A stretch of 17,123 bases of DNA from UHGV virus genome UHGV-0227332, one strand, 5' to 3'. The notes beneath the pieces were generated by a model. The model was not told the origin of the DNA and searched no databases. It saw nothing but the letters and a program-made list of their open reading frames with translations. This DNA is from a virus. Made by a program: the position numbers and the translations under genes. Shown here in pieces: positions 1,727 through 10,187 of the stretch; the stretch's first letter is position 1; every line of letters starts with the position of its first letter.

Positions 1727-2013
1727 GGCTTAATCTTCCCCTCCTTCAGTAGTATCGCCTGCGTCCTGATCACGCCTTCGAGGTGGTAAAGTCTGGCGTC
1801 TTTGTTGTCGAGAATCCTTGTGCGTCGGTCGATCTCCGCGTGGCAGTCACTACAAGCCCATGCACCGATCAGGTCGTCAGGCTTCATTCCCGTTCCGCAA
1901 ATTCCAGCCATCCGGTAATGTGCCAGAACTGTAGTTTCAGGGTTGCCATTGCATACGCCGTAAATACGTACCTGGCATTCTCTGCCGCGCGCTTCTTTGC
2001 GTAGGTTAGCCAT
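1723..2013 (-). CDS. DUF1364 / YbcO-like Cys-His-rich nin-region protein, 96 aa
   Basis: 96 aa with Cys/His clusters (C..C...H...C...C.DCH). It sits just upstream of rusA, as ybcO does in DLP12-like nin regions. Family assignment is from memory. Confidence 0.65.
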   Translation of the reverse strand: MANLRKEARGRECQVRIYGVCNGNPETTVLAHYRMAGICGTGMKPDDLIGAWACSDCHAEIDRRTRILDNKDARLYHLEGVIRTQAILLKEGKIKP

Positions 2014-2738: not shown

Positions 2739-2907
2739 CGTCTTCTTCCTCGTACATTGAGCTATTCGGATCGCTCATCAGTTCTGCGCAGCAGTGCTCA
2801 CACACGTGAACTTCCAGCACATGCAGCTTCTGGCCGCAGTTAGCGCACGTTAAAGCCCGCTCGACGCTTTCTTTCTGGTATTGAAGGGATTGGGATGGGC
2901 TAAGCAT
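2731..2907 (-). CDS. ninF: NinF, 58 aa (a longer in-frame upstream start at 2964 is possible)
   Basis: [46 protein letters not shown] with CxxC...CxxC matches lambda NinF from memory. The internal Met was chosen by that homology. Confidence 0.7.
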   Translation of the reverse strand: MLSPSQSLQYQKESVERALTCANCGQKLHVLEVHVCEHCCAELMSDPNSSMYEEEDDE

Positions 2908-4671: not shown

Positions 4672-6552
4672 TTAATACTCCGTCACGTTTTCCTGTCGCC
4701 ACGCCTCGTCATATTCCGATTTCGGCATATTGGCGATGTAGCTATATGGCGATCCTGATTCAAGTTGCAGGAACTGGTGCGATTGCTCGTCAAGGAACAA
4801 CGGGACGCCACCTTCCCAACCTTCGCCGTTACGTTGTTTTTCAAGCATCAAAACAGATGCCGGAGATGCCAGTAGCTGTTCGTCCTTCTCTGACATCTTT
4901 TCACCACTCTGAACTCTCTGTAACGCTCTCTCGCGAGCCTTGTTACGCCAGATGATGAAAAGGTTGTCTGTCAGGTCTGTTATCGCTCCAGAGCCTTTTA
5001 CGTCCATTTTCCCGGTTGGTTTTTCTTCGCTGTCTCCTTTTCGCGAGTGAGTAACGAGAATGACGTGGGAGTTTGTTTTGTTTTTGAAGTCGCAAATCGA
5101 GTCAACAAACGCCTTCTGCCCGTTATAGTCATCGTCGCCTATGCCACATTTCATCAGGCTGTCGATGATGAATAACTGGATACCGTATCGGCGGCGAGCG
5201 TAGTCGAATATTTCGATCAGCCTGTCGGCTTTCGCCGTTCCGGTCAGGCCAAACACCCAAAGTCTTTCGTCATAAAATTTAAATGCAGAGTCAATTTCCA
5301 GCACTGGCGGCATCTTGCAGCACGTCGCCTGACGGGTAAGGCGCTTAAGGAGAATACCAGGCTTCAGCTCAAGTGACGCGATGCACGTCTTCACACCCTG
5401 ACGCATTGCCTCAAGTGCCATATGCCCGACAACCTCCGTTTTTCCGTGACCGTTCACACCATTGACCAGCGTCAACTCTGCCTCACGGAACTGGAATTTA
5501 TCTGCCAGAGATTCCCACGGTGGATTAAACAGATACTGCTGCTTGCCGTAGAAAGCGTTGATAGTGTCCTGGTAAAACTCTCGCGCGCTGTAGAGTTCTT
5601 CAGGATCGAAGTAGGATGCCGTGCCGATGTACTGCCAGATTTCATCCTCGGTAACACCGTTCATCAGGCATTCGTTGATGTCTTTGTACGGCAGAGTAAC
5701 AAGACGGCAACGATGTTCACCGAGTCGGCTTGCGATTTCCCTTGCGGCTTCACGACCAACATCATCAACATCCATCGAGATGAATATTTCCTCAAACCTG
5801 TCGAGGTTGTGATACTCAAACTCAATCCACTGTTGCTTAGCGCCTTTCCCGCCACCAAACGGCACGGATAACGCCGAGATGCCGTATTGCGCATAGCTCA
5901 TACAATCAATTTCGCCTTCGCAAAGTACAACCGCCCTCACGCCAGCGTCCAGAGCCTGCCATCCGAACAGACAAGGTTCGCAATCACCTTCTGCCATAAT
6001 GACTTTCTTCCCGTCCGGGCGCTCAGTGCTGATTCGCTTTACCTGCAACAACTCACCATCGCGTTTGTACGGAATCACCAGAGCATCCAGTTCTCGCTCT
6101 CCATTCCACACCTTGCCGCTGACAACCTCGTAGCGCTTTACGATTTCTGGCGATATGCCACGCGATTGCAGGTACTCAAGATGGGATTCTGTTCTGGTAA
6201 CGTAGCGGGAGATTTTCTTGCGGTCAGGTCTGGAGAATTTCTTCTCACGTTTGGCATCGAAATGGTGATCGTCATCCTTGATTCCGAGAAAGGCTTTCGC
6301 TTCCTGCATAGCCTGATGCAGGTTAATTCCACGACATGCCATCCACAAATCAAGCATGTCACCGCCGTCTCCCTCAGCGAAATCAGCCCATTTTTTCTTG
6401 CCGCTAAGGTTGACCTTAAGGCTGTTTCCCTTGTCACCGTTGACGTTACCGGCAACCCACTCATGCCCCTCTTTCTTGCCGTTTGGCAACAGGTGCGGAG
6501 CCACCCTGTCAACCTGCGCCCAAAGCAGGTCACTGAGTTCACTTGGCGTCAT
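4672..6552 (-). CDS. Bifunctional DNA primase / replicative helicase (TOPRIM plus DnaB-like RecA-fold), 626 aa
   Basis: TOPRIM-like motifs (VLCEGEIDCMS; ISMDVDD). Walker A GVNGHGKT and Walker B-like LFIIDSL in the C-terminal half. Sits where lambda P would be, downstream of the initiator. Confidence 0.9.
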   Translation of the reverse strand: MTPSELSDLLWAQVDRVAPHLLPNGKKEGHEWVAGNVNGDKGNSLKVNLSGKKKWADFAEGDGGDMLDLWMACRGINLHQAMQEAKAFLGIKDDDHHFDAKREKKFSRPDRKKISRYVTRTESHLEYLQSRGISPEIVKRYEVVSGKVWNGERELDALVIPYKRDGELLQVKRISTERPDGKKVIMAEGDCEPCLFGWQALDAGVRAVVLCEGEIDCMSYAQYGISALSVPFGGGKGAKQQWIEFEYHNLDRFEEIFISMDVDDVGREAAREIASRLGEHRCRLVTLPYKDINECLMNGVTEDEIWQYIGTASYFDPEELYSAREFYQDTINAFYGKQQYLFNPPWESLADKFQFREAELTLVNGVNGHGKTEVVGHMALEAMRQGVKTCIASLELKPGILLKRLTRQATCCKMPPVLEIDSAFKFYDERLWVFGLTGTAKADRLIEIFDYARRRYGIQLFIIDSLMKCGIGDDDYNGQKAFVDSICDFKNKTNSHVILVTHSRKGDSEEKPTGKMDVKGSGAITDLTDNLFIIWRNKARERALQRVQSGEKMSEKDEQLLASPASVLMLEKQRNGEGWEGGVPLFLDEQSHQFLQLESGSPYSYIANMPKSEYDEAWRQENVTEY

Positions 6553-6659: not shown

Positions 6660-7520
6660 TCACCTGTCGAAAAACACGTAGCCAGTTTTCGATACGGTGA
6701 TTGCGGATGATGGTTTGGATTGTGGTTGAATAGTTTCTGGCTTCTCGTCGTTCCAGCGCTGACCGTTCAGGTAGCTCGATGGTAACAACCTGTCGAATCC
6801 GAACTGCTTACCATTCCTGCATGCGATGTCTTCTGCCAGCATCGTGGCAAACTCGCTTGCCGTACCCCTGGTAGTTTTACGCCATTCCCTGAACTGTGTT
6901 CTGAATGCCGAAGCTGCGTTTTTCTTCCCGGCCTTCCGCATGCCTGCACACCAGAATATTTCCTCGAATGCCTTGTCGGTTTCTTCGTGACGGTCAGGTG
7001 ATTTTTCACACTCCGTCCGAACACTTTCGGACATAGTGTTTTTATTATTTCTTTTTTCTTTTGTAATAGTTTCTTTTGTGTGTCCCTGTTTTGGTGACAG
7101 CGCTGTCACCGTTTTGGTGACACTTTTTGTCACCAATGCAGTGACATTATCACCAGAGTAGTGACACCCTTCGATTTGCCATTCCTCGATGTTCTTGTTA
7201 GGCCCGATTTGCTGGCCTTCGCGAAGGATAACCTTCATCGCGATAAGCTCATTCTTGGCCTTGTTTACCTTCTGTCTTGGCAGCCTGGTAATTTGAGCTA
7301 ACTGACTATCAGAGATGCGATCCATCTTTTTACCGTAGCCGTATGTTTTACGGCATATGGCGTGGGCAACCTTGCTCTGATTTTTCGTTAAATCTGCGCC
7401 GATAAGCTCTTCATACAGGGCATTTGCAAGACGGGTATAACCATCTTCAACTTCTGCCACACGACGCTCCACAGGCCGTTGTGAAGGCCTTAAATGTGTT
7501 ACGGTTGCAAGATTACTCAT
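6660..7520 (-). CDS. Replication initiator with lambda O-like N-terminal DNA-binding domain, 286 aa
   Basis: N-terminal [65 protein letters not shown] resembles the lambda O N-terminal domain. Iterons lie inside the gene. The C-terminal half is unlike lambda O. Confidence 0.85.
7033..7170. repeat. Origin-like element: AT-rich tract (7033-7080) next to four GGTGACA-type iterons (7093-7169)
   Basis: Perfect 18-bp palindrome GGTGACAGCGCTGTCACC (7093-7110), GGTGACACTTTTTGTCACC (7116-7134), and GTGACA repeats near 7141 and 7162, at roughly 20-23 bp spacing. The AT-rich block follows. Same architecture as ori-lambda inside O. Confidence 0.65.
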
Positions 7521-7691: not shown

Positions 7692-7985
7692 TCAGAATTC
7701 CATCTGGATTTGTTCAGAACGCTCGGTTGCCGCCGGGCGTTTTTTATTGGTGAGAATCGAAGCAACTTGTCGTGCCAATCGAGCCATGTCGTCGTCAACG
7801 ACACCCCATTCAAGAACAGCAAGCAGCATTGAGAACTTTGGAATCCAATCCCTCTTCCACCTGCTGATCTGCGACTTATCAACTCCCACAGCTTCCGCTG
7901 TCTTCTCAGTTCCAAGCATTGCGATTTTGTTAAGCAACGCACTCTCGATTCTTAGAGCCTCGTTGCGTTTGTTTGCACGAACCAT
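7692..7985 (-). CDS. cII: CII transcriptional activator (lambda type), 97 aa
   Basis: [75 protein letters not shown] matches lambda CII from memory. Internal Met chosen over the ORF-track start at 8072. Confidence 0.95.
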
Positions 7986-8043
7986 ATGTAAGTATTTCCT
8001 TAACAAATAAGAAGTTATGCGCATCAACTTATGCGCGTTGTAT

Positions 8044-8087
8044 TCCCGCATTTCGGCGGGAATGAGGACCATGACTGTTAAAGAGCA
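8044..8087 (-). promoter_or_regulatory. nutR-like site: boxA plus boxB hairpin
   Basis: On the minus strand: boxA-like GCTCTTTAACA (8077-8087), then hairpin TCCCGC-CGAAAT-GCGGGA (8044-8061). The same hairpin recurs at the nutL position. Located between cro and cII as in lambda. Confidence 0.55.
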
Positions 8088-8093
8088 ATTTGC

Positions 8094-8279
8094 TTATGCC
8101 GCTTTGCGGTAAGCGCTTTCTTGATACTTCAGGGCGCCAGCTGTAACGACTTCCAGTCGATAGGCGTCTTTCTCTGGGATGACTTCCTTCCACTGAGAGA
8201 CTGCTGCGTCGCTAATGCCTAACGCTTTAGCTACAGCACGCTGGGTTCCGAAGTGGTCGATAACATCTTTCTTGTACAT
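8094..8279 (-). CDS. cro: Cro repressor (P22 Cro type), 61 aa
   Basis: MYKKDVIDHFGTQRAVAKALGISDAAVSQWKEVIPEKDAYRLE... is near-identical to P22 Cro as I remember it. GGAG RBS; divergent from the repressor gene. Confidence 0.9.
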   Translation of the reverse strand: MYKKDVIDHFGTQRAVAKALGISDAAVSQWKEVIPEKDAYRLEVVTAGALKYQESAYRKAA

Positions 8280-8359
8280 AGACTCGCTCCGAAATTAAAG
8301 AACACTTAAATTATCCACTAAAGGAATCTTAAGTCAAGTTTATTTAAGATGTCTTAACT
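8280..8359. promoter_or_regulatory. OR region: divergent PR/PRM promoters with P22-type operators
   Basis: 18-bp operator-like near-palindromes ATTAAAGAACACTTAAAT (8294-8311) and ATTTAAGATGTCTTAACT (8342-8359). Minus-strand PR candidate: -35 TTGACT (8332-8337) and -10 GATAAT (8310-8315). Confidence 0.7.
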
Positions 8360-9010
8360 ATGAAAACTCAATTGATGGGAGAGCGCATTCGCGCTCGGAG
8401 AAAAGAACTCAAGATCAGGCAGGCCGCACTTGGAAAGATGGTCGGCGTGTCTAATGTTGCCATATCTCAGTGGGAACGCTCTGAGACAGAGCCAAATGGA
8501 GAGAATCTTCTCGCCCTGGCTAATGCGTTGAAGTGTTCCCCTGACTATCTGATGAAAGGAGAGGAAAGTCTTTCAAACATTGCCTATCACAGTAGGCATG
8601 ATCCAAGAGGGTCATACCCTCTGATTAGCTGGGTGAGCGCAGGATGCTGGATGGAAGCTGTAGAACCATATCATAAGCGTGCAATAGATAACTGGTACGA
8701 TACAACCGTAGACTGTTCAGAAGATTCGTTTTGGTTGGACGTGAAGGGAGACTCAATGACGGCTCCGGCCGGTCTCAGTATCCCTGAAGGAATGATAATA
8801 CTCGTCGATCCTGAAGTAGAGCCGCGTAACGGGAAACTGGTAGTTGCAAAGCTCGAAGGAGAAAACGAGGCAACTTTCAAGAAGTTAGTTATTGATGCAG
8901 GCAGGAAGTTTCTAAAACCACTTAACCCACAATATCCGATGATCGAGATCAACGGAAACTGCAAAATCATCGGCGTAGTTGTCGATGCAAAACTAGCAAA
9001 CCTTCCATAA
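8360..9010 (+). CDS. c2: Prophage repressor, P22 C2-like (lambda CI analogue), 216 aa
   Basis: HTH N-terminal domain (QAALGKMVGVSNVAISQWERSE) and S24 peptidase-like C-terminal domain. Highly similar to P22 C2 from memory, same length. Confidence 0.95.
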   Translation: MKTQLMGERIRARRKELKIRQAALGKMVGVSNVAISQWERSETEPNGENLLALANALKCSPDYLMKGEESLSNIAYHSRHDPRGSYPLISWVSAGCWMEAVEPYHKRAIDNWYDTTVDCSEDSFWLDVKGDSMTAPAGLSIPEGMIILVDPEVEPRNGKLVVAKLEGENEATFKKLVIDAGRKFLKPLNPQYPMIEINGNCKIIGVVVDAKLANLP

Positions 9011-9033
9011 GGGGGCATTCGCCCCTTTTTTTT
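9011..9033 (+). terminator. Rho-independent terminator after the repressor gene
   Basis: GGGGC-ATTC-GCCCC hairpin followed by a T8 run, immediately after the repressor stop codon. Confidence 0.6.
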
Positions 9034-9056
9034 ATTTCCTTTAAAAATCAAAGCCA

Positions 9057-9140
9057 AACTTAAGTTACGAAAGAAAATTTAAGTTTTCTTCAAAAATACT
9101 CTTGACCATTAATTAAAGAGATCTTAAATTTAAGCCATCA
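9057..9140 (+). promoter_or_regulatory. OL/PL region: early-left promoter with P22-type operators
   Basis: -35 TTGACC (9104-9109), 17-bp spacer, -10 TAAATT (9127-9132). Operator-like sites ATTAAAGAGATCTTAAAT (9114-9131), ATTTAAGTTTTCTTCAAA (9077-9094) and AACTTAAGTT (near 9057-9066) share half-sites with the OR sites. Confidence 0.6.
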
Positions 9141-9176
9141 GCAGGACGCTGGAAGCCAAACGGAACAGATTGGCAG

Positions 9177-9217
9177 GCTCTTTAACATTGATGGGATTGT
9201 CCCGCCGAAATGCGGGA
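9177..9217 (+). promoter_or_regulatory. nutL-like site: boxA plus boxB hairpin
   Basis: boxA-like GCTCTTTAACA (9177-9187), then TCCCGC-CGAAAT-GCGGGA hairpin (9200-9217), identical to the hairpin at the nutR position. Between PL and the N-like gene. Confidence 0.55.
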
Positions 9218-9324
9218 ACCAAAGAGTAGTTGGCTTTGGGGTGACGTGAAGTGCAGCTGCACGACAGCAACCGGAAGATAAGCACCCGGCGCGTCACCGC
9301 CAAAGTCAATCATCGGAGGTCAAC

Positions 9325-9630
9325 ATGGCAGTAGTCATTACATATCTGGCTGACGATAACGCCAGAAATCGCCGCAGAGCACGCAGACAGGCTCAACGTG
9401 AACAGGCAATGCAAGAACAGCGACTGGCACGAAAAATTGCGCTAAAGCTCTCTGGTTGCGTCAGGGCAGATAAAGCAGCATCACTCGGAAGCCTTCGCTG
9501 CAAGAAGGCAGAAGAAGTCGAGCGTAAACAGAACCGTATTTACTACCGCAAGCCACGCAGTGAAATGGGTGTGACTTGTTCAGGCCGCCAGAAGCAACGC
9601 GGAAAATCAATTCCAGCTTATTACGATTGA
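9325..9630 (+). CDS. N: N-like transcription antiterminator, 101 aa
   Basis: First gene after PL/nutL. N-terminal arginine-rich motif NARNRRRARRQAQREQ. C-terminus GVTCSGRQKQRGKSIPAYY resembles the lambda N C-terminus. GGAGG RBS. Confidence 0.75.
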   Translation: MAVVITYLADDNARNRRRARRQAQREQAMQEQRLARKIALKLSGCVRADKAASLGSLRCKKAEEVERKQNRIYYRKPRSEMGVTCSGRQKQRGKSIPAYYD

Positions 9631-9638
9631 GGTGAGCC

Positions 9639-9776
9639 ATGCTCAAGAAAGTCAAACGCCGACTTTACAAAGAAGGTAGATATTCATGCCAGTTGCCAAA
9701 ATGCGACACAACAAAATGGAGTGTCGATGATTGGTGTAACTGGATAGATAGATACGGAACTTGGTGGGATAAATAA
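9639..9776 (+). CDS. Possible small Cys/Trp-rich protein, 45 aa
   Basis: ATG 5 nt after a GGTGA RBS, starting 9 nt after the N stop. Translation MLKKVKRRLYKEGRYSCQLPKCDTTKWSVDDWCNWIDRYGTWWDK. Short, so uncertain. Confidence 0.3.
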   Translation: MLKKVKRRLYKEGRYSCQLPKCDTTKWSVDDWCNWIDRYGTWWDK

Positions 9777-9905: not shown

Positions 9906-10067
9906 ATGATGAATAAGAAATACATTGTTGAAGTTATAGAGCGAGAAACGAAAGAAGTAATTAAACATTTCGAATTTGATAATTATAGAAAAGCTGACCG
10001 CGTAGAAGAGGGATTGTTGCGACAAAGTAATCTCGAAAAATTTGATGTTGTCATGCGATGCGAATAA
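9906..10067 (+). CDS. Possible small protein, 53 aa
   Basis: ATGATG start after a GGGGAAG purine-rich stretch. Translation MMNKKYIVEVIERETKEVIKHFEFDNYRKADRVEEGLLRQSNLEKFDVVMRCE. No family recognised. Confidence 0.4.
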   Translation: MMNKKYIVEVIERETKEVIKHFEFDNYRKADRVEEGLLRQSNLEKFDVVMRCE

Positions 10068-10160
10068 GCACCTATAGCAGATTTGCGAGTCTGCTATGTG
10101 AGCAATGTCGCTCGTAACTAAACAGGAGCCGACTTGTTCTGATTATTGGAAATCTTCTTT

Positions 10161-10187
10161 GCCCTCCAGTGTGAGGGCAATTTTTTT
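10161..10187 (+). terminator. Intrinsic terminator inside the PL operon (tL1-like)
   Basis: GCCCTC-CAGTGT-GAGGGC hairpin followed by AATTTTTTT, immediately upstream of the RBS of the next gene. Confidence 0.55.

Follow-up and report, generated by a model that had tools for sequence, protein, structure and literature searches.

Two identical RNA hairpins in the 17.1-kb stretch of viral DNA that we analyzed (the window, taken at its full length) are very probably the boxB elements of the nutL and nutR sites of a lambda-style N antitermination system, carried by a CUS-3/HK620-like (P22-like) E. coli prophage. By analogy with known systems, the arginine-rich motif (ARM) of the N protein and both boxB elements would act as one matched set. 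This reading is carried by the anatomy of the region, by homology, and by a strict co-occurrence of ARM and boxB, each of which we observed directly. N proteins are short and are disordered when free, and N-boxB pairs are the classic model of RNA recognition by arginine-rich peptides and serve as widely used tethering tools.

Anatomy of the nut sites and the immunity cassette

The first-pass annotation had described identical hairpins, TCCCGC-CGAAAT-GCGGGA, at the two nut sites, each preceded by an rrn-like boxA, and both observations hold. The boxB sequence TCCCGCCGAAATGCGGGA occurs exactly twice in the window, at 8044-8061 (minus strand) and 9200-9217 (plus strand), against 0.01 copies expected by chance, and none of 200 shuffles reached two matches. 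A repeat search recovered the two copies as a 19-nt perfect inverted repeat. Both copies are predicted to fold into a 6-nt loop on a 6-bp stem, and the nutR stem continues to 8 bp (AUUCCCGC/GCGGGAAU, spanning 8042-8063). A pattern search placed boxA GCTCTTTAACA at 8076-8086 (minus) and 9177-9187 (plus) and found no further copy in the window, even allowing one mismatch. At each site boxB lies on the 3' side of boxA, with a spacing of 12 nt at nutL and 14 nt at nutR. The nutL site is placed between PL and N and the nutR site between cro and cII, with promoter-like sites upstream of both in a promoter scan. Both the PL and the PR transcripts carry a boxA and a short boxB hairpin early on, which is the arrangement of the lambdoid N/nut systems. 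The features of the nut sites and of the left operon are as follows.

8019 to 8036, minus strand: RNA hairpin GCGCAU-AAGUUG-AUGCGC in the tR1 position, from folding and comparison of variants
8044 to 8061, minus strand: nutR boxB, UCCCGC-CGAAAU-GCGGGA, identical to the boxB part of the annotated nutR of HK620
8076 to 8087, minus strand: nutR boxA, UGCUCUUUAACA, an exact pattern match of the rrn-consensus type
9177 to 9187, plus strand: nutL boxA, GCUCUUUAACA, identical to the annotated boxA-L of phage 21 and to HK620 nutL
9200 to 9217, plus strand: nutL boxB, UCCCGC-CGAAAU-GCGGGA, identical to the boxB of the annotated nutL of HK620
9229 to 9312, plus strand: long leader stem lying between nutL and the N ribosome-binding site, from RNA folding
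9232 to 9243, plus strand: putative boxC-like element, GGCUUUGGGGUG, 14 nt 3' of the nutL boxB
9325 to 9630, plus strand: N antiterminator gene (101 aa), with the ARM at about residues 10 to 27 (nt 9352-9405) and the rest of phage 21 type
10159 to 10187, plus strand: tL1-like intrinsic terminator downstream of N, from a terminator scan (8-bp stem, then TTTTTTT)

The nutR boxA sequence is the same as the annotated boxA-R of phage 21 and also lies inside the annotated nutR of HK620. Within it, UGCUCUUUA-ACA corresponds to the rrn boxA together with the first bases of its spacer, and boxC is counted as part of nut (PMC2724277). The boxC-like 12-mer also follows the lambda-type nutL of phage mEp213 and is conserved in part in a four-phage alignment. 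The segment from 9196 to 9330 has a predicted folding energy of -55.1 kcal/mol (z=-3.9; none of 200 shuffles was equally stable). By analogy, the leader stem within it may be the counterpart of the RNase III hairpin of the lambda N leader. A search of the whole window against Rfam, a library without a nut or boxB model, gave no family at the gathering thresholds.

The immunity cassette is, by homology, a mosaic in which cI, cro, and operators of the P22/21 type adjoin a lambda cII. It consists of the following features.

7692 to 7985, minus strand: cII (97 aa), lambda type (Pfam Phage_CII, E=1.7e-48)
7963 to 7976, plus strand: TTGC-N6-TTGC cII/PRE box, read directly from the sequence
8094 to 8279, minus strand: cro, P22 type (Pfam P22_Cro, E=8.7e-28)
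8294 to 8359, no strand assigned: OR operators of P22/21 type at 8294-8311, 8317-8334, and 8342-8359, matching ANTNAAGN4CTTNANT with zero mismatches at all three
8337 to 8310, minus strand: PR-like promoter, from the promoter scan
8360 to 9010, plus strand: prophage repressor (216 aa) of the P22 C2/phage 21 cI type (Pfam HTH_3 and Peptidase_S24)
9009 to 9028, plus strand: intrinsic terminator after the repressor gene, from the terminator scan
9077 to 9130, plus strand: OL operators at 9077-9094 and 9112-9129, from the ANTNAAGN4CTTNANT pattern search
9102 to 9130, plus strand: PL-like promoter, from the promoter scan

The assignment of the repressor, Cro, and operators as P22-like and of cII as lambda-like, made in the first-pass annotation, was borne out at each point. 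Residues 1 to 76 of the repressor align with the N-terminal domain of P22 C2 (1ADR, E=3e-37) and have the same recognition helix, Cro is identical to P22 Cro (1RZS) at 58 of 61 residues, and cII is identical to lambda cII (1XWR) at 96 of 97. We ran ANTNAAGN4CTTNANT, which we take to be the operator consensus, as a pattern search and obtained eight matches in the window versus 0.8 expected; OR and OL together hold four perfect matches and one match with a single mismatch. The C2-type repressor, P22-type Cro, and OR/OL operators place the cassette with the P22/21-type immunity (immC), and the phage 21 cI and cro belong to the same P22-like family. The immunity region shows 85% DNA identity to phage 21/DE3, and the OL/PL region aligns near-identically with the annotated OL/PL of phage 21. 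Sites equivalent to the cII/PRE box are annotated in HK629 and mEp213.

The N protein and the known N-boxB pairs

The PL operon begins with a gene for a small, basic N homologue that has an N-terminal ARM. The protein matches PHROG 271, "anti-termination protein N-like" (E=5e-36), and a PDB sequence search returned lambda N alone among N proteins. Residues 62 to 98 align with residues 74 to 109 of lambda N in the antitermination complex 6GOV (E=6e-7), and by this homology the C terminus of the window N would contact RNA polymerase. The distinct arginine-rich motif that had been noted before is confirmed as NARNRRRARRQAQREQ at residues 12 to 27 of the open reading frame; it fits the consensus of 36 distinct variants, among which the ARM is conserved. 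From about residue 33 on, over about 70% of its length, the protein is near-identical to phage 21 N, a feature that is central to the reading and does not figure in the first-pass annotation. Automated annotation misses the gene: RefSeq calls it "hypothetical protein," the Pfam N_peptide score of 18.9 bits is under the 27.9-bit cutoff, and NCBIfam gave no model for it.

Aligned in ARM and boxB with lambda, P22, and phage 21, the window pair matches none of the three. Phage 21 resembles the window in its PL leader, boxA GCUCUUUAACA, the start of the spacer, the boxC-like region, and a 6-nt boxB loop. However, nutL similarity stops exactly at boxB and protein similarity exactly at the ARM, which is TAKSRYKARRAELIAERR in phage 21. 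The phage 21 boxB sequences are UCUCAAC-CUAACC-GUUGAGA and UCACCU-CUAACC-GGGUGA, with nutL and nutR stems unlike each other, whereas the window stems are identical. Despite its 21-like remainder of N and 21-like nut flanks, the window therefore falls outside the phage 21 class as defined by that ARM and the CUAACC loop. Within N/nut, by alignment, it is just the ARM and both boxB elements that differ from phage 21, having been replaced together.

Lambda shares with the window the architecture of the system, the ARM core A-x-x-R-R-R-x-R-R, and a purine-rich loop with GAAA. In contrast, its boxB, GCCCU-GAAAA-AGGGC, combines a 5-nt loop with a 5-bp stem, its boxA, CGCUCUUA, is not the rrn consensus, the position of its Trp18 is Ala in the window N, and the middle parts of the two N proteins are unrelated. 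Measured against the lambda class (ARM MDAQTRRRERRAEKQAQWK, boxB GCCCU-GAARA-AGGGC), the window is identical at 7 of 17 ARM positions and differs in stem, loop length, and the Trp position. The P22 N protein, gp24, starts with M-T-V-(V)-I-T-Y and then N-A-[KR]-x-R-R, as does the window N, and P22 boxA is likewise of the consensus type. The P22 boxB elements, GCGCU-GACAA-AGCGC at nutL and CCGCC-GACAA-CGCGG at nutR, have 5-nt loops, unlike the 6-nt loop of the window hairpin, and the P22 ARM, NAKTRRHERRRKLAIER, is identical to the window ARM at 5 of 17 positions, which sets the window apart from the P22 class (ARM GNAKTRRHERRRKLAIER, GACAA pentaloop).

The pair has a close match in HK620 (NC_002730). 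The boxA-spacer-boxB of HK620 nutL is base for base that of the window, nutR is the same except for the base preceding boxA, N residues 1 to 64 are at least 95% identical, and the hairpin in the tR1 position is the same. Similar carriers are HK140, CUS-3, IME10, Gally, JEP4, N7, HF4s, and the Stx2c phage Stx2_5044. Beyond this module the two diverge: HK620 has a 434/L-like cI, a lambda/HK97-like cro, and a P22 c1-like cII where the window has the P22/21-type cassette and a lambda cII, and HK620 N ends in an H-19B/P22-like tail, ...CLPNVAIYAAGYRKSKQLTAR, where the window N ends in ...SGRQKQRGKSIPAYYD. The HK620 GenBank record annotates exactly these sequences as "putative N-utilization leftward/rightward," and the novelty implied for the pair in the first-pass annotation does not stand. 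As to whether the pair equals one already characterized, it is identical in sequence to that of HK620, but our literature search found no experimental characterization of it, HK620 (Clark et al. 2001) being known in this respect from its GenBank annotation only. The pair is thus already catalogued through the HK620 annotation, and 511 of 5,426 complete E. coli genomes (about 9%) carry the module; because of this we regard it as real but ordinary.

Co-occurrence of ARM and boxB

The comparison covered about 280 loci from metagenomes or prophages as well as 16 reference phages. Among the reference phages there are four classes of ARM, and every class has a boxB of its own. Throughout the set, the HK620-type ARM occurred only with the HK620-type boxB, and the phage 21, lambda, and P22 ARMs occurred only with their own. 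The distinct nutL/N combinations numbered 107 for the HK620 type, 9 for the phage 21 class, and 4 for the lambda class, with no off-diagonal case. When loci were picked by the ARM alone in a profile scan (80 closest loci listed), the exact boxB was present in 75 of 79; the other four were mEp213, locus L222, and two loci with short upstream flanks. When loci were picked by boxB alone, the ARM core was present in all of them, even where the remainder of N was unrelated. The loop was fixed by design in two of the scans. The N C-terminal tails and the immunity regions reassort independently of the ARM-boxB pair. That lambdoid phages exchange modules while keeping N matched to nut is well documented.

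The window has the ARM core DNA[RK]NRRRx[RK]R and the boxB core CCGC-CGAAAU-GCGG at both nut sites, and its ARM-boxB fits a fourth natural specificity class. The strict co-occurrence of ARM and boxB while other N modules reassort supports the earlier suggestion of a separate N-boxB specificity pair, as far as sequence comparison can speak for specificity. The nutR boxB is invariant across every nutR site of loci with the HK620-type ARM, and boxB is nearly invariant across related loci in general; because it hardly varies, compensatory changes offer little support for the upper stem. A scan of species-representative genomes gave five matches (Escherichia sp., Pantoea piersonii, two probably contaminated metagenome-assembled genomes, and one chance match in Bradyrhizobium), which extends the class to Pantoea. 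Phage mEp213 encodes two N proteins: one is of the lambda type and has nut sites of that type, and the second is of the HK620 type and lacks an intact cognate nut.

Quite possibly, the two boxB copies are identical because of a recent gene conversion from one inverted nut site to the other, and not because every nucleotide of the stem is under selection; recognition would then be limited to the loop and the top 4 bp. In locus L075, the nutR boxA-spacer-boxB has been wholly converted to the nutL version. We considered an inversion of the immunity cassette as the source of this hybrid site and rejected it; the gene order is unchanged, and we therefore ascribe the hybrid to gene conversion. In divergent lineages, the lower stem varies both between nutL and nutR and from lineage to lineage, and CCGC-CGAAAU-GCGG is constant. 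Yet the 18-nt identity is kept in most of about 200 E. coli loci, also where their flanks differ, and such conversion would be compatible with a matched ARM-boxB set, not opposed to it.

Since both the ARM core (AxxRRRxRR) and the GAAA loop resemble those of lambda, the sites could be functional without any separate specificity, the window N and lambda (or P22) N recognizing each other's boxB. We consider this unlikely. The identities between the window and lambda ARMs, which come from an ungapped alignment, include Ala and five Arg, the window loop contains GAAA as does the GAAAA of lambda, and the second N of mEp213 would be accommodated by such cross-recognition. However, the lambda ARM is just as similar to those of P22 and phage 21 (7 of 17 positions each), and these pairs are said to be functionally specific in the work of Franklin and of Tan and Frankel. 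Stem sequence, stem length, and loop size are all unlike those of lambda, and although both sides recombine abundantly, none of the roughly 120 distinct combinations joins an ARM to a mismatched boxB. Partial cross-recognition of lambda boxB by the window N is possible, judging from these similarities.

It is most improbable that the hairpins, instead of being N targets, are stems of a terminator or attenuator, sites for RNase III, or inverted repeats that act at the DNA level in recombination or protein binding and flank the cassette: the 19-bp perfect repeat does bracket cI-cro and a natural junction in mEp213 does reflect recombination within the hairpin, but neither hairpin is followed by a T run or was called in the terminator scan, both keep a fixed distance from boxA, they covary strictly with the N ARM, and their location is that of the nut sites defined by experiment in lambda and phage 21.

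We infer RNA binding, orthogonality, and antitermination activity; binding and the suppression of terminators have indirect support in the strict ARM-boxB co-occurrence and in the terminators that lie downstream of each nut site. If the hairpins are boxB, then by analogy with lambda the PL (plus) and PR (minus) transcripts would present a consensus boxA, to which NusB-S10 would bind, followed by the boxB hairpin, whose core, CCGC-CGAAAU-GCGG, would be bound by the N ARM (core DNARNRRRARRQAQRE). The remaining N, with its NusA- and RNA polymerase-contacting parts, would derive from the phage 21 N module, and the RNA loop would hold N on the elongating polymerase. The polymerase would then read through the tL1-like terminator at 10159-10187, likely the first N target on the left operon, and through the hairpin/terminator in the tR1 position between nutR and cII. 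Together, the ARM and the two boxB elements make up the HK620-type set, which differs from those of lambda, P22, and phage 21 and has probably been swapped as a unit into a phage 21-like nut/N backbone.

More tentatively, and with some doubt on our part, the HK620-type pair may be a fourth, fully orthogonal ARM-boxB solution, with a boxB in which a C.U mismatch atop a CCGC/GCGG stem closes a canonical GAAA tetraloop of the GNRA type, and an ARM that reads this boxB without stacking of the lambda N-type Trp. To our knowledge, the solved N-boxB structures are those of the lambda, P22, and phage 21 pairs. If the proposal is right, the HK620-type boxB would be the plain form of a GNRA-like fold, imitated by the pentaloops of lambda and P22 through base extrusion, and the pair, because it is so invariant and widespread, would offer synthetic biology an extra, ready-made orthogonal peptide-RNA tether. 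The window is a clean natural case of the fourth class, which is very common in E. coli prophages. Since the ARM and the two boxB elements alone appear exchanged in a phage 21 backbone, it comes near to a natural domain-swap experiment and is therefore convenient for studies of specificity and orthogonality. No concept is changed, the sites having been annotated in HK620 in 2001.

The hairpin 3' of nutR

A direct repeat between nutR and cII had also been reported. It is present, as AAsTTATGCGC at 8012-8022 and 8026-8036, but with a period of 14, so that the gap between the two GCGCATAA 8-mers is 6 nt, not 7. A conserved RNA hairpin, placed where lambda has tR1, appears to be the better explanation of the repeat. 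The hairpin lies 7 nt 3' of the core nutR boxB and 5 nt from the extended boxB stem, and the fold of 7983-8064 (minus strand) has a z score of -4.1. A role of the repeat in protein binding, comparable to that of the cII TTGC-N6-TTGC box, was considered as well and discarded; the true cII box is at 7963-7976, and the repeat decays in variants while the hairpin stays. In these variants, the hairpin survives through G.U wobble pairs, which can form in the PR-sense RNA only, and divergent lineages carry hairpins of other sequence at the tR1 position.

Paired nut sites in a mosaic immunity region

The window contains the 18-mer TCCCGCCGAAATGCGGGA exactly twice, once on the minus strand (8044-8061) and once on the plus strand (9200-9217); 0.01 occurrences are expected by chance, and two matches did not arise in any of 200 shuffles. 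Together the copies make a 19-nt perfect inverted repeat. Each folds as RNA into a 6-bp stem with the 6-nt loop CGAAAU, the stem of the minus-strand copy being lengthened to 8 bp. The hairpins lie 12 to 14 nt downstream of a boxA, GCTCTTTAACA, at 8076-8086 (minus strand) and 9177-9187 (plus strand), which had no other match in the window with one mismatch allowed. The minus-strand boxA reads UGCUCUUUA-ACA, which corresponds to the E. coli rrn boxA and the first bases of the spacer that follows it; lambda's boxA is CGCUCUUA (PMC2724277). The exact match on both strands and the match to the rrn boxA bear out the first-pass annotation, which had described one hairpin present twice behind an rrn-like boxA.

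Features of the immunity region and its flanks
6660-7520, minus strand: O-like replication gene (Pfam Phage_rep_O)
7692-7985, minus strand: cII, 96/97 identical to lambda cII
8094-8279, minus strand: cro, 58/61 identical to P22 Cro
8294-8359, no strand: three operators that fit the P22-type consensus without mismatch
8337->8310, minus strand: PR-like promoter
8360-9010, plus strand: repressor, 216 aa, residues 1-76 matching the P22 C2 DNA-binding domain
9009-9028, plus strand: terminator after the repressor gene
9077-9129, plus strand: OL operators
9102-9130, plus strand: PL-like promoter
9325-9630, plus strand: N-like protein, 101 aa (PHROG 271, E=5e-36)

With the plus-strand hairpin between PL and N and the minus-strand hairpin between cro and cII, the two occupy the canonical nutL and nutR positions. 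The repressor recognition helix is identical to that of P22 C2, and the repressor, Cro, operator and cII matches agree with the earlier description of P22-like immunity joined to a lambda cII.

Several neighboring features were also observed. The CUS-3 record gives cII as a 126-aa ORF from an upstream in-frame ATG inside nutR (window 7692-8072, minus strand; CUS-3 locus L001, 1497-1877); the 97-aa form, which begins at 7985 behind a Shine-Dalgarno sequence of its own, corresponds to lambda cII. Antisense to the cII 3' end, at 7716-7743 (plus strand), is a strong intrinsic terminator placed like that of the lambda oop RNA; an oop-like RNA is annotated at the equivalent site of HK629, and an Rfam search of the whole window returned no match. 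Two small conserved ORFs, at 9639-9776 and 9906-10067 (plus strand), separate N from the tL1-like terminator; one is DUF5484/PHROG 1871 and the other PHROG 6949, neither of which gives a function. After the O-like gene, 4672-6552 (minus strand) encodes a 626-aa protein that by sequence looks like a primase/helicase fusion, where CUS-3 and phage 21 have a lambda P or DnaB-type helicase loader.

A fourth class of arginine-rich motif and boxB

Phages CUS-3, Gally, JEP4, N7 and IME10 share 98.8 to 99.4% identity with the region, and phage 21 and its relatives share about 85%. Aligned with the phage 21 record, which carries curated nutL, nutR, boxA and operator features, the window keeps the PL leader, boxA and spacer start, but DNA similarity is lost exactly at boxB and regained after it. 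Likewise, N follows phage 21 N almost residue for residue from about position 33 to the C-terminal region, whereas residues 1-32, which carry the arginine-rich motif (ARM), are unrelated in sequence. Because similarity breaks at boxB and the ARM alone, the ARM and both boxB hairpins have been swapped together in a phage-21-type nut/N backbone. Lambda N aligns at its end with the C-terminal 37 residues of the window N (solved antitermination complex 6GOV, E=6e-7).

We compared the N proteins and the hairpins next to boxA in 16 annotated reference phages, which sort into four classes.

ARM and boxB classes among reference phages
lambda class: ARM AQTRRRERRAEKQAQW; boxB GCCCU-GAARA-AGGGC; lambda, SfI, mEp043
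P22 class: ARM NAKTRRHERRRKLAIER; boxB with GACAA pentaloop; ST64T, SH2026Stx1
phage 21 class: ARM TAKSRYKARRAELIAERR; boxB with CUAACC hexaloop; 21, PA28, VT1-Sakai, HK629, mEpX1, Kapi1
HK620-type class: ARM NARNRRRARRQAQREQ; boxB UCCCGC-CGAAAU-GCGGGA; window, CUS-3, HK620, HK140, Stx2_5044

Inside each class the C-terminal modules of N vary (for example, ...SGRQKQRGKSIPAYYD, ...VGRQKMKLGSKPLI, ...CLPNVAIYAAGYRKSKQLTAR and ...NPLGNKIHAVQK...), and among the 16 phages N tails recur between classes. Immunity regions vary inside classes too, the HK620 repressor being 434/L-like. The window ARM matches that of lambda at 7 of 17 positions and those of P22 and phage 21 at 5 of 17 each; these three differ from one another no more than they do from it. 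By sequence comparison, the window pair is a fourth ARM-boxB class. Its boxB loop contains GAAA and may form a GNRA tetraloop closed by a C.U pair.

We scanned IMG/VR three times, taking 80 loci by N similarity, 120 by boxA...CCGAAATG and the best 80 by ARM profile alone. The distinct nutL/N combinations numbered 107 HK620-type, 9 phage 21 class and 4 lambda class, with no mismatched ARM and boxB among them. Exactly this boxB stood upstream of N in 75 of 79 ARM-selected loci, the exceptions being mEp213, locus L222 and two loci with short upstream flanks. The boxB-selected loci encode quite divergent N proteins (MTIVMTILASDNARNRRRAKRAAEREQV..., MTIVVTYLASDTAKNRRRERRAALRDQ..., a Pantoea piersonii prophage), all of which keep the ARM core. 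All 36 distinct ARM variants have N-R-R-R, with another Arg three positions on and a Thr upstream; the D-N-A-R that leads into the core and the A-[RK]-R that follows are nearly invariant. The lower boxB stem varies (UCUCCGC/GCGGGGA, UUCCCGC/GCGGGGAA, UUUCCGC/GCGGGAAA) around a constant core, CCGC-CGAAAU-GCGG; in two scans the search pattern itself fixed the loop and the uppermost one or two base pairs, and independent evidence for the core comes only from the third and fourth pairs and the N-selected and ARM-selected sets. This strict co-occurrence supports the earlier proposal of a separate N-boxB specificity pair, which we infer to be orthogonal to the others.

Homology and position point to lambda-type N antitermination as the most likely mechanism. 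Nascent PL and PR transcripts would expose boxA, bound by NusB-S10, and then boxB, bound by the N ARM; the phage-21-type body of N would engage NusA and RNA polymerase, and the modified polymerase would read through downstream terminators. Each side offers a candidate first target: a strong intrinsic terminator (10159-10187, plus strand) on the left and the structured nutR-cII region on the right.

A hairpin downstream of nutR

The direct repeat reported between nutR and cII is present, as AAsTTATGCGC at 8012-8022 and 8026-8036, with a period of 14 and a gap of 6 nt between 8-mers rather than the N7 spacing given. ATGCGCAT is a palindrome, which lets these bases also pair as a hairpin, GCGCAU-AAGUUG-AUGCGC (8019-8036, minus strand), starting 5 nt past the extended nutR boxB stem; the 82-nt segment running from boxB to the cII start folds with z=-4.1. 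We compared the tails after nutR at 160 sites (27 distinct 62-nt tails). A common variant, GCGCAUC-AGUU-GGUGCGU (17 loci), loses the direct repeat and keeps the stem through G.U pairs that form only in the PR-sense RNA (-9.5 versus -3.7 kcal/mol antisense), and divergent lineages have hairpins of other sequence at the equivalent position (ACGCAUC...GAUGCGU, GCAGACC...GGUCUGC). These results argue for a conserved RNA structure at the lambda tR1 position, and the hairpin is likely a tR1-like element. We rejected a protein-binding repeat at 8012-8036, since variants lose the repeat and retain the hairpin; the true cII-type TTGC-N6-TTGC box is at 7963-7976, with counterparts annotated in the HK629 and mEp213 records.

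Existing records and variation among relatives

The paired nut sites are real and the first-pass interpretation of them is correct, but they are already catalogued, and this kind of system is well understood. The HK620 GenBank record labels GGCTCTTTAACATTGATGGGATTGTCCCGCCGAAATGCGGGA "nutL; putative N-utilization leftward" and CGCTCTTTAACAGTCATGGTCCTCATTCCCGCCGAAATGCGGGAAT nutR; the former is identical to the window nutL, and the latter differs from the window nutR only in the base before boxA. The same ARM is encoded in CUS-3, HK140, mEp213, IME10, Gally, JEP4, N7, HF4s and some Stx phages, and the nutL-ARM segment occurs in 511 of 5,426 complete E. coli genomes. RefSeq E. coli genomes label N "hypothetical" protein; Pfam N_peptide scores 18.9 bits, under its 27.9 cutoff, NCBIfam has no model for it, and PHROGs alone recognizes it. 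A divergent N terminus on an otherwise conserved N has been read as a new boxB specificity in phages epsilon34 (PMC2629481) and L (PMC8022706), so the first-pass reasoning was already in the literature. The earlier annotation had also raised identity to a characterized N-nut pair: the sequence does match the HK620 nut sites, and in the literature searched, which excluded the HK620 and CUS-3 genome papers, we found neither this boxB or ARM sequence nor an experimental test of the pair.

Individual relatives depart from this arrangement. In an IMG/VR prophage (L075), the nutR boxA-spacer-boxB is replaced by the nutL version (1734-1762, minus strand, versus 2853-2881, plus strand), giving a 41-bp perfect inverted repeat with gene order unchanged; this is gene conversion between the two nut sites. 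Phage mEp213 (L084/L301, NC_019720) carries two N genes: a lambda-type N accompanied by nutL and nutR of the same type and, about 1.5 kb farther along the PL operon, an HK620-type N. No boxA precedes this second N; a hybrid hairpin, GCCCUC-CGAAAU-GCGGGA, does, joining the left arm of a tL1-like terminator (compare window 10159-10167) to the right half of boxB.

The nutL-to-N distance is 353 to 486 nt in CUS-3, HK140 and Stx2_5044, compared with 149 nt in the window, reflecting about 200 to 340 extra nt between boxB and N. The CUS-3 insert includes part of its "bsq5 boundary sequence" (L001 2816-3317 versus window 9011-9324), and in Stx2_5044 the right flank of boxB also differs. In the window, a long, very stable stem at 9229-9312 (plus strand) lies between the nutL boxB/boxC and the N ribosome-binding site (fold of 9196-9330, -55 kcal/mol, z=-3.9); it recalls the RNase III-sensitive hairpin of the lambda N leader.
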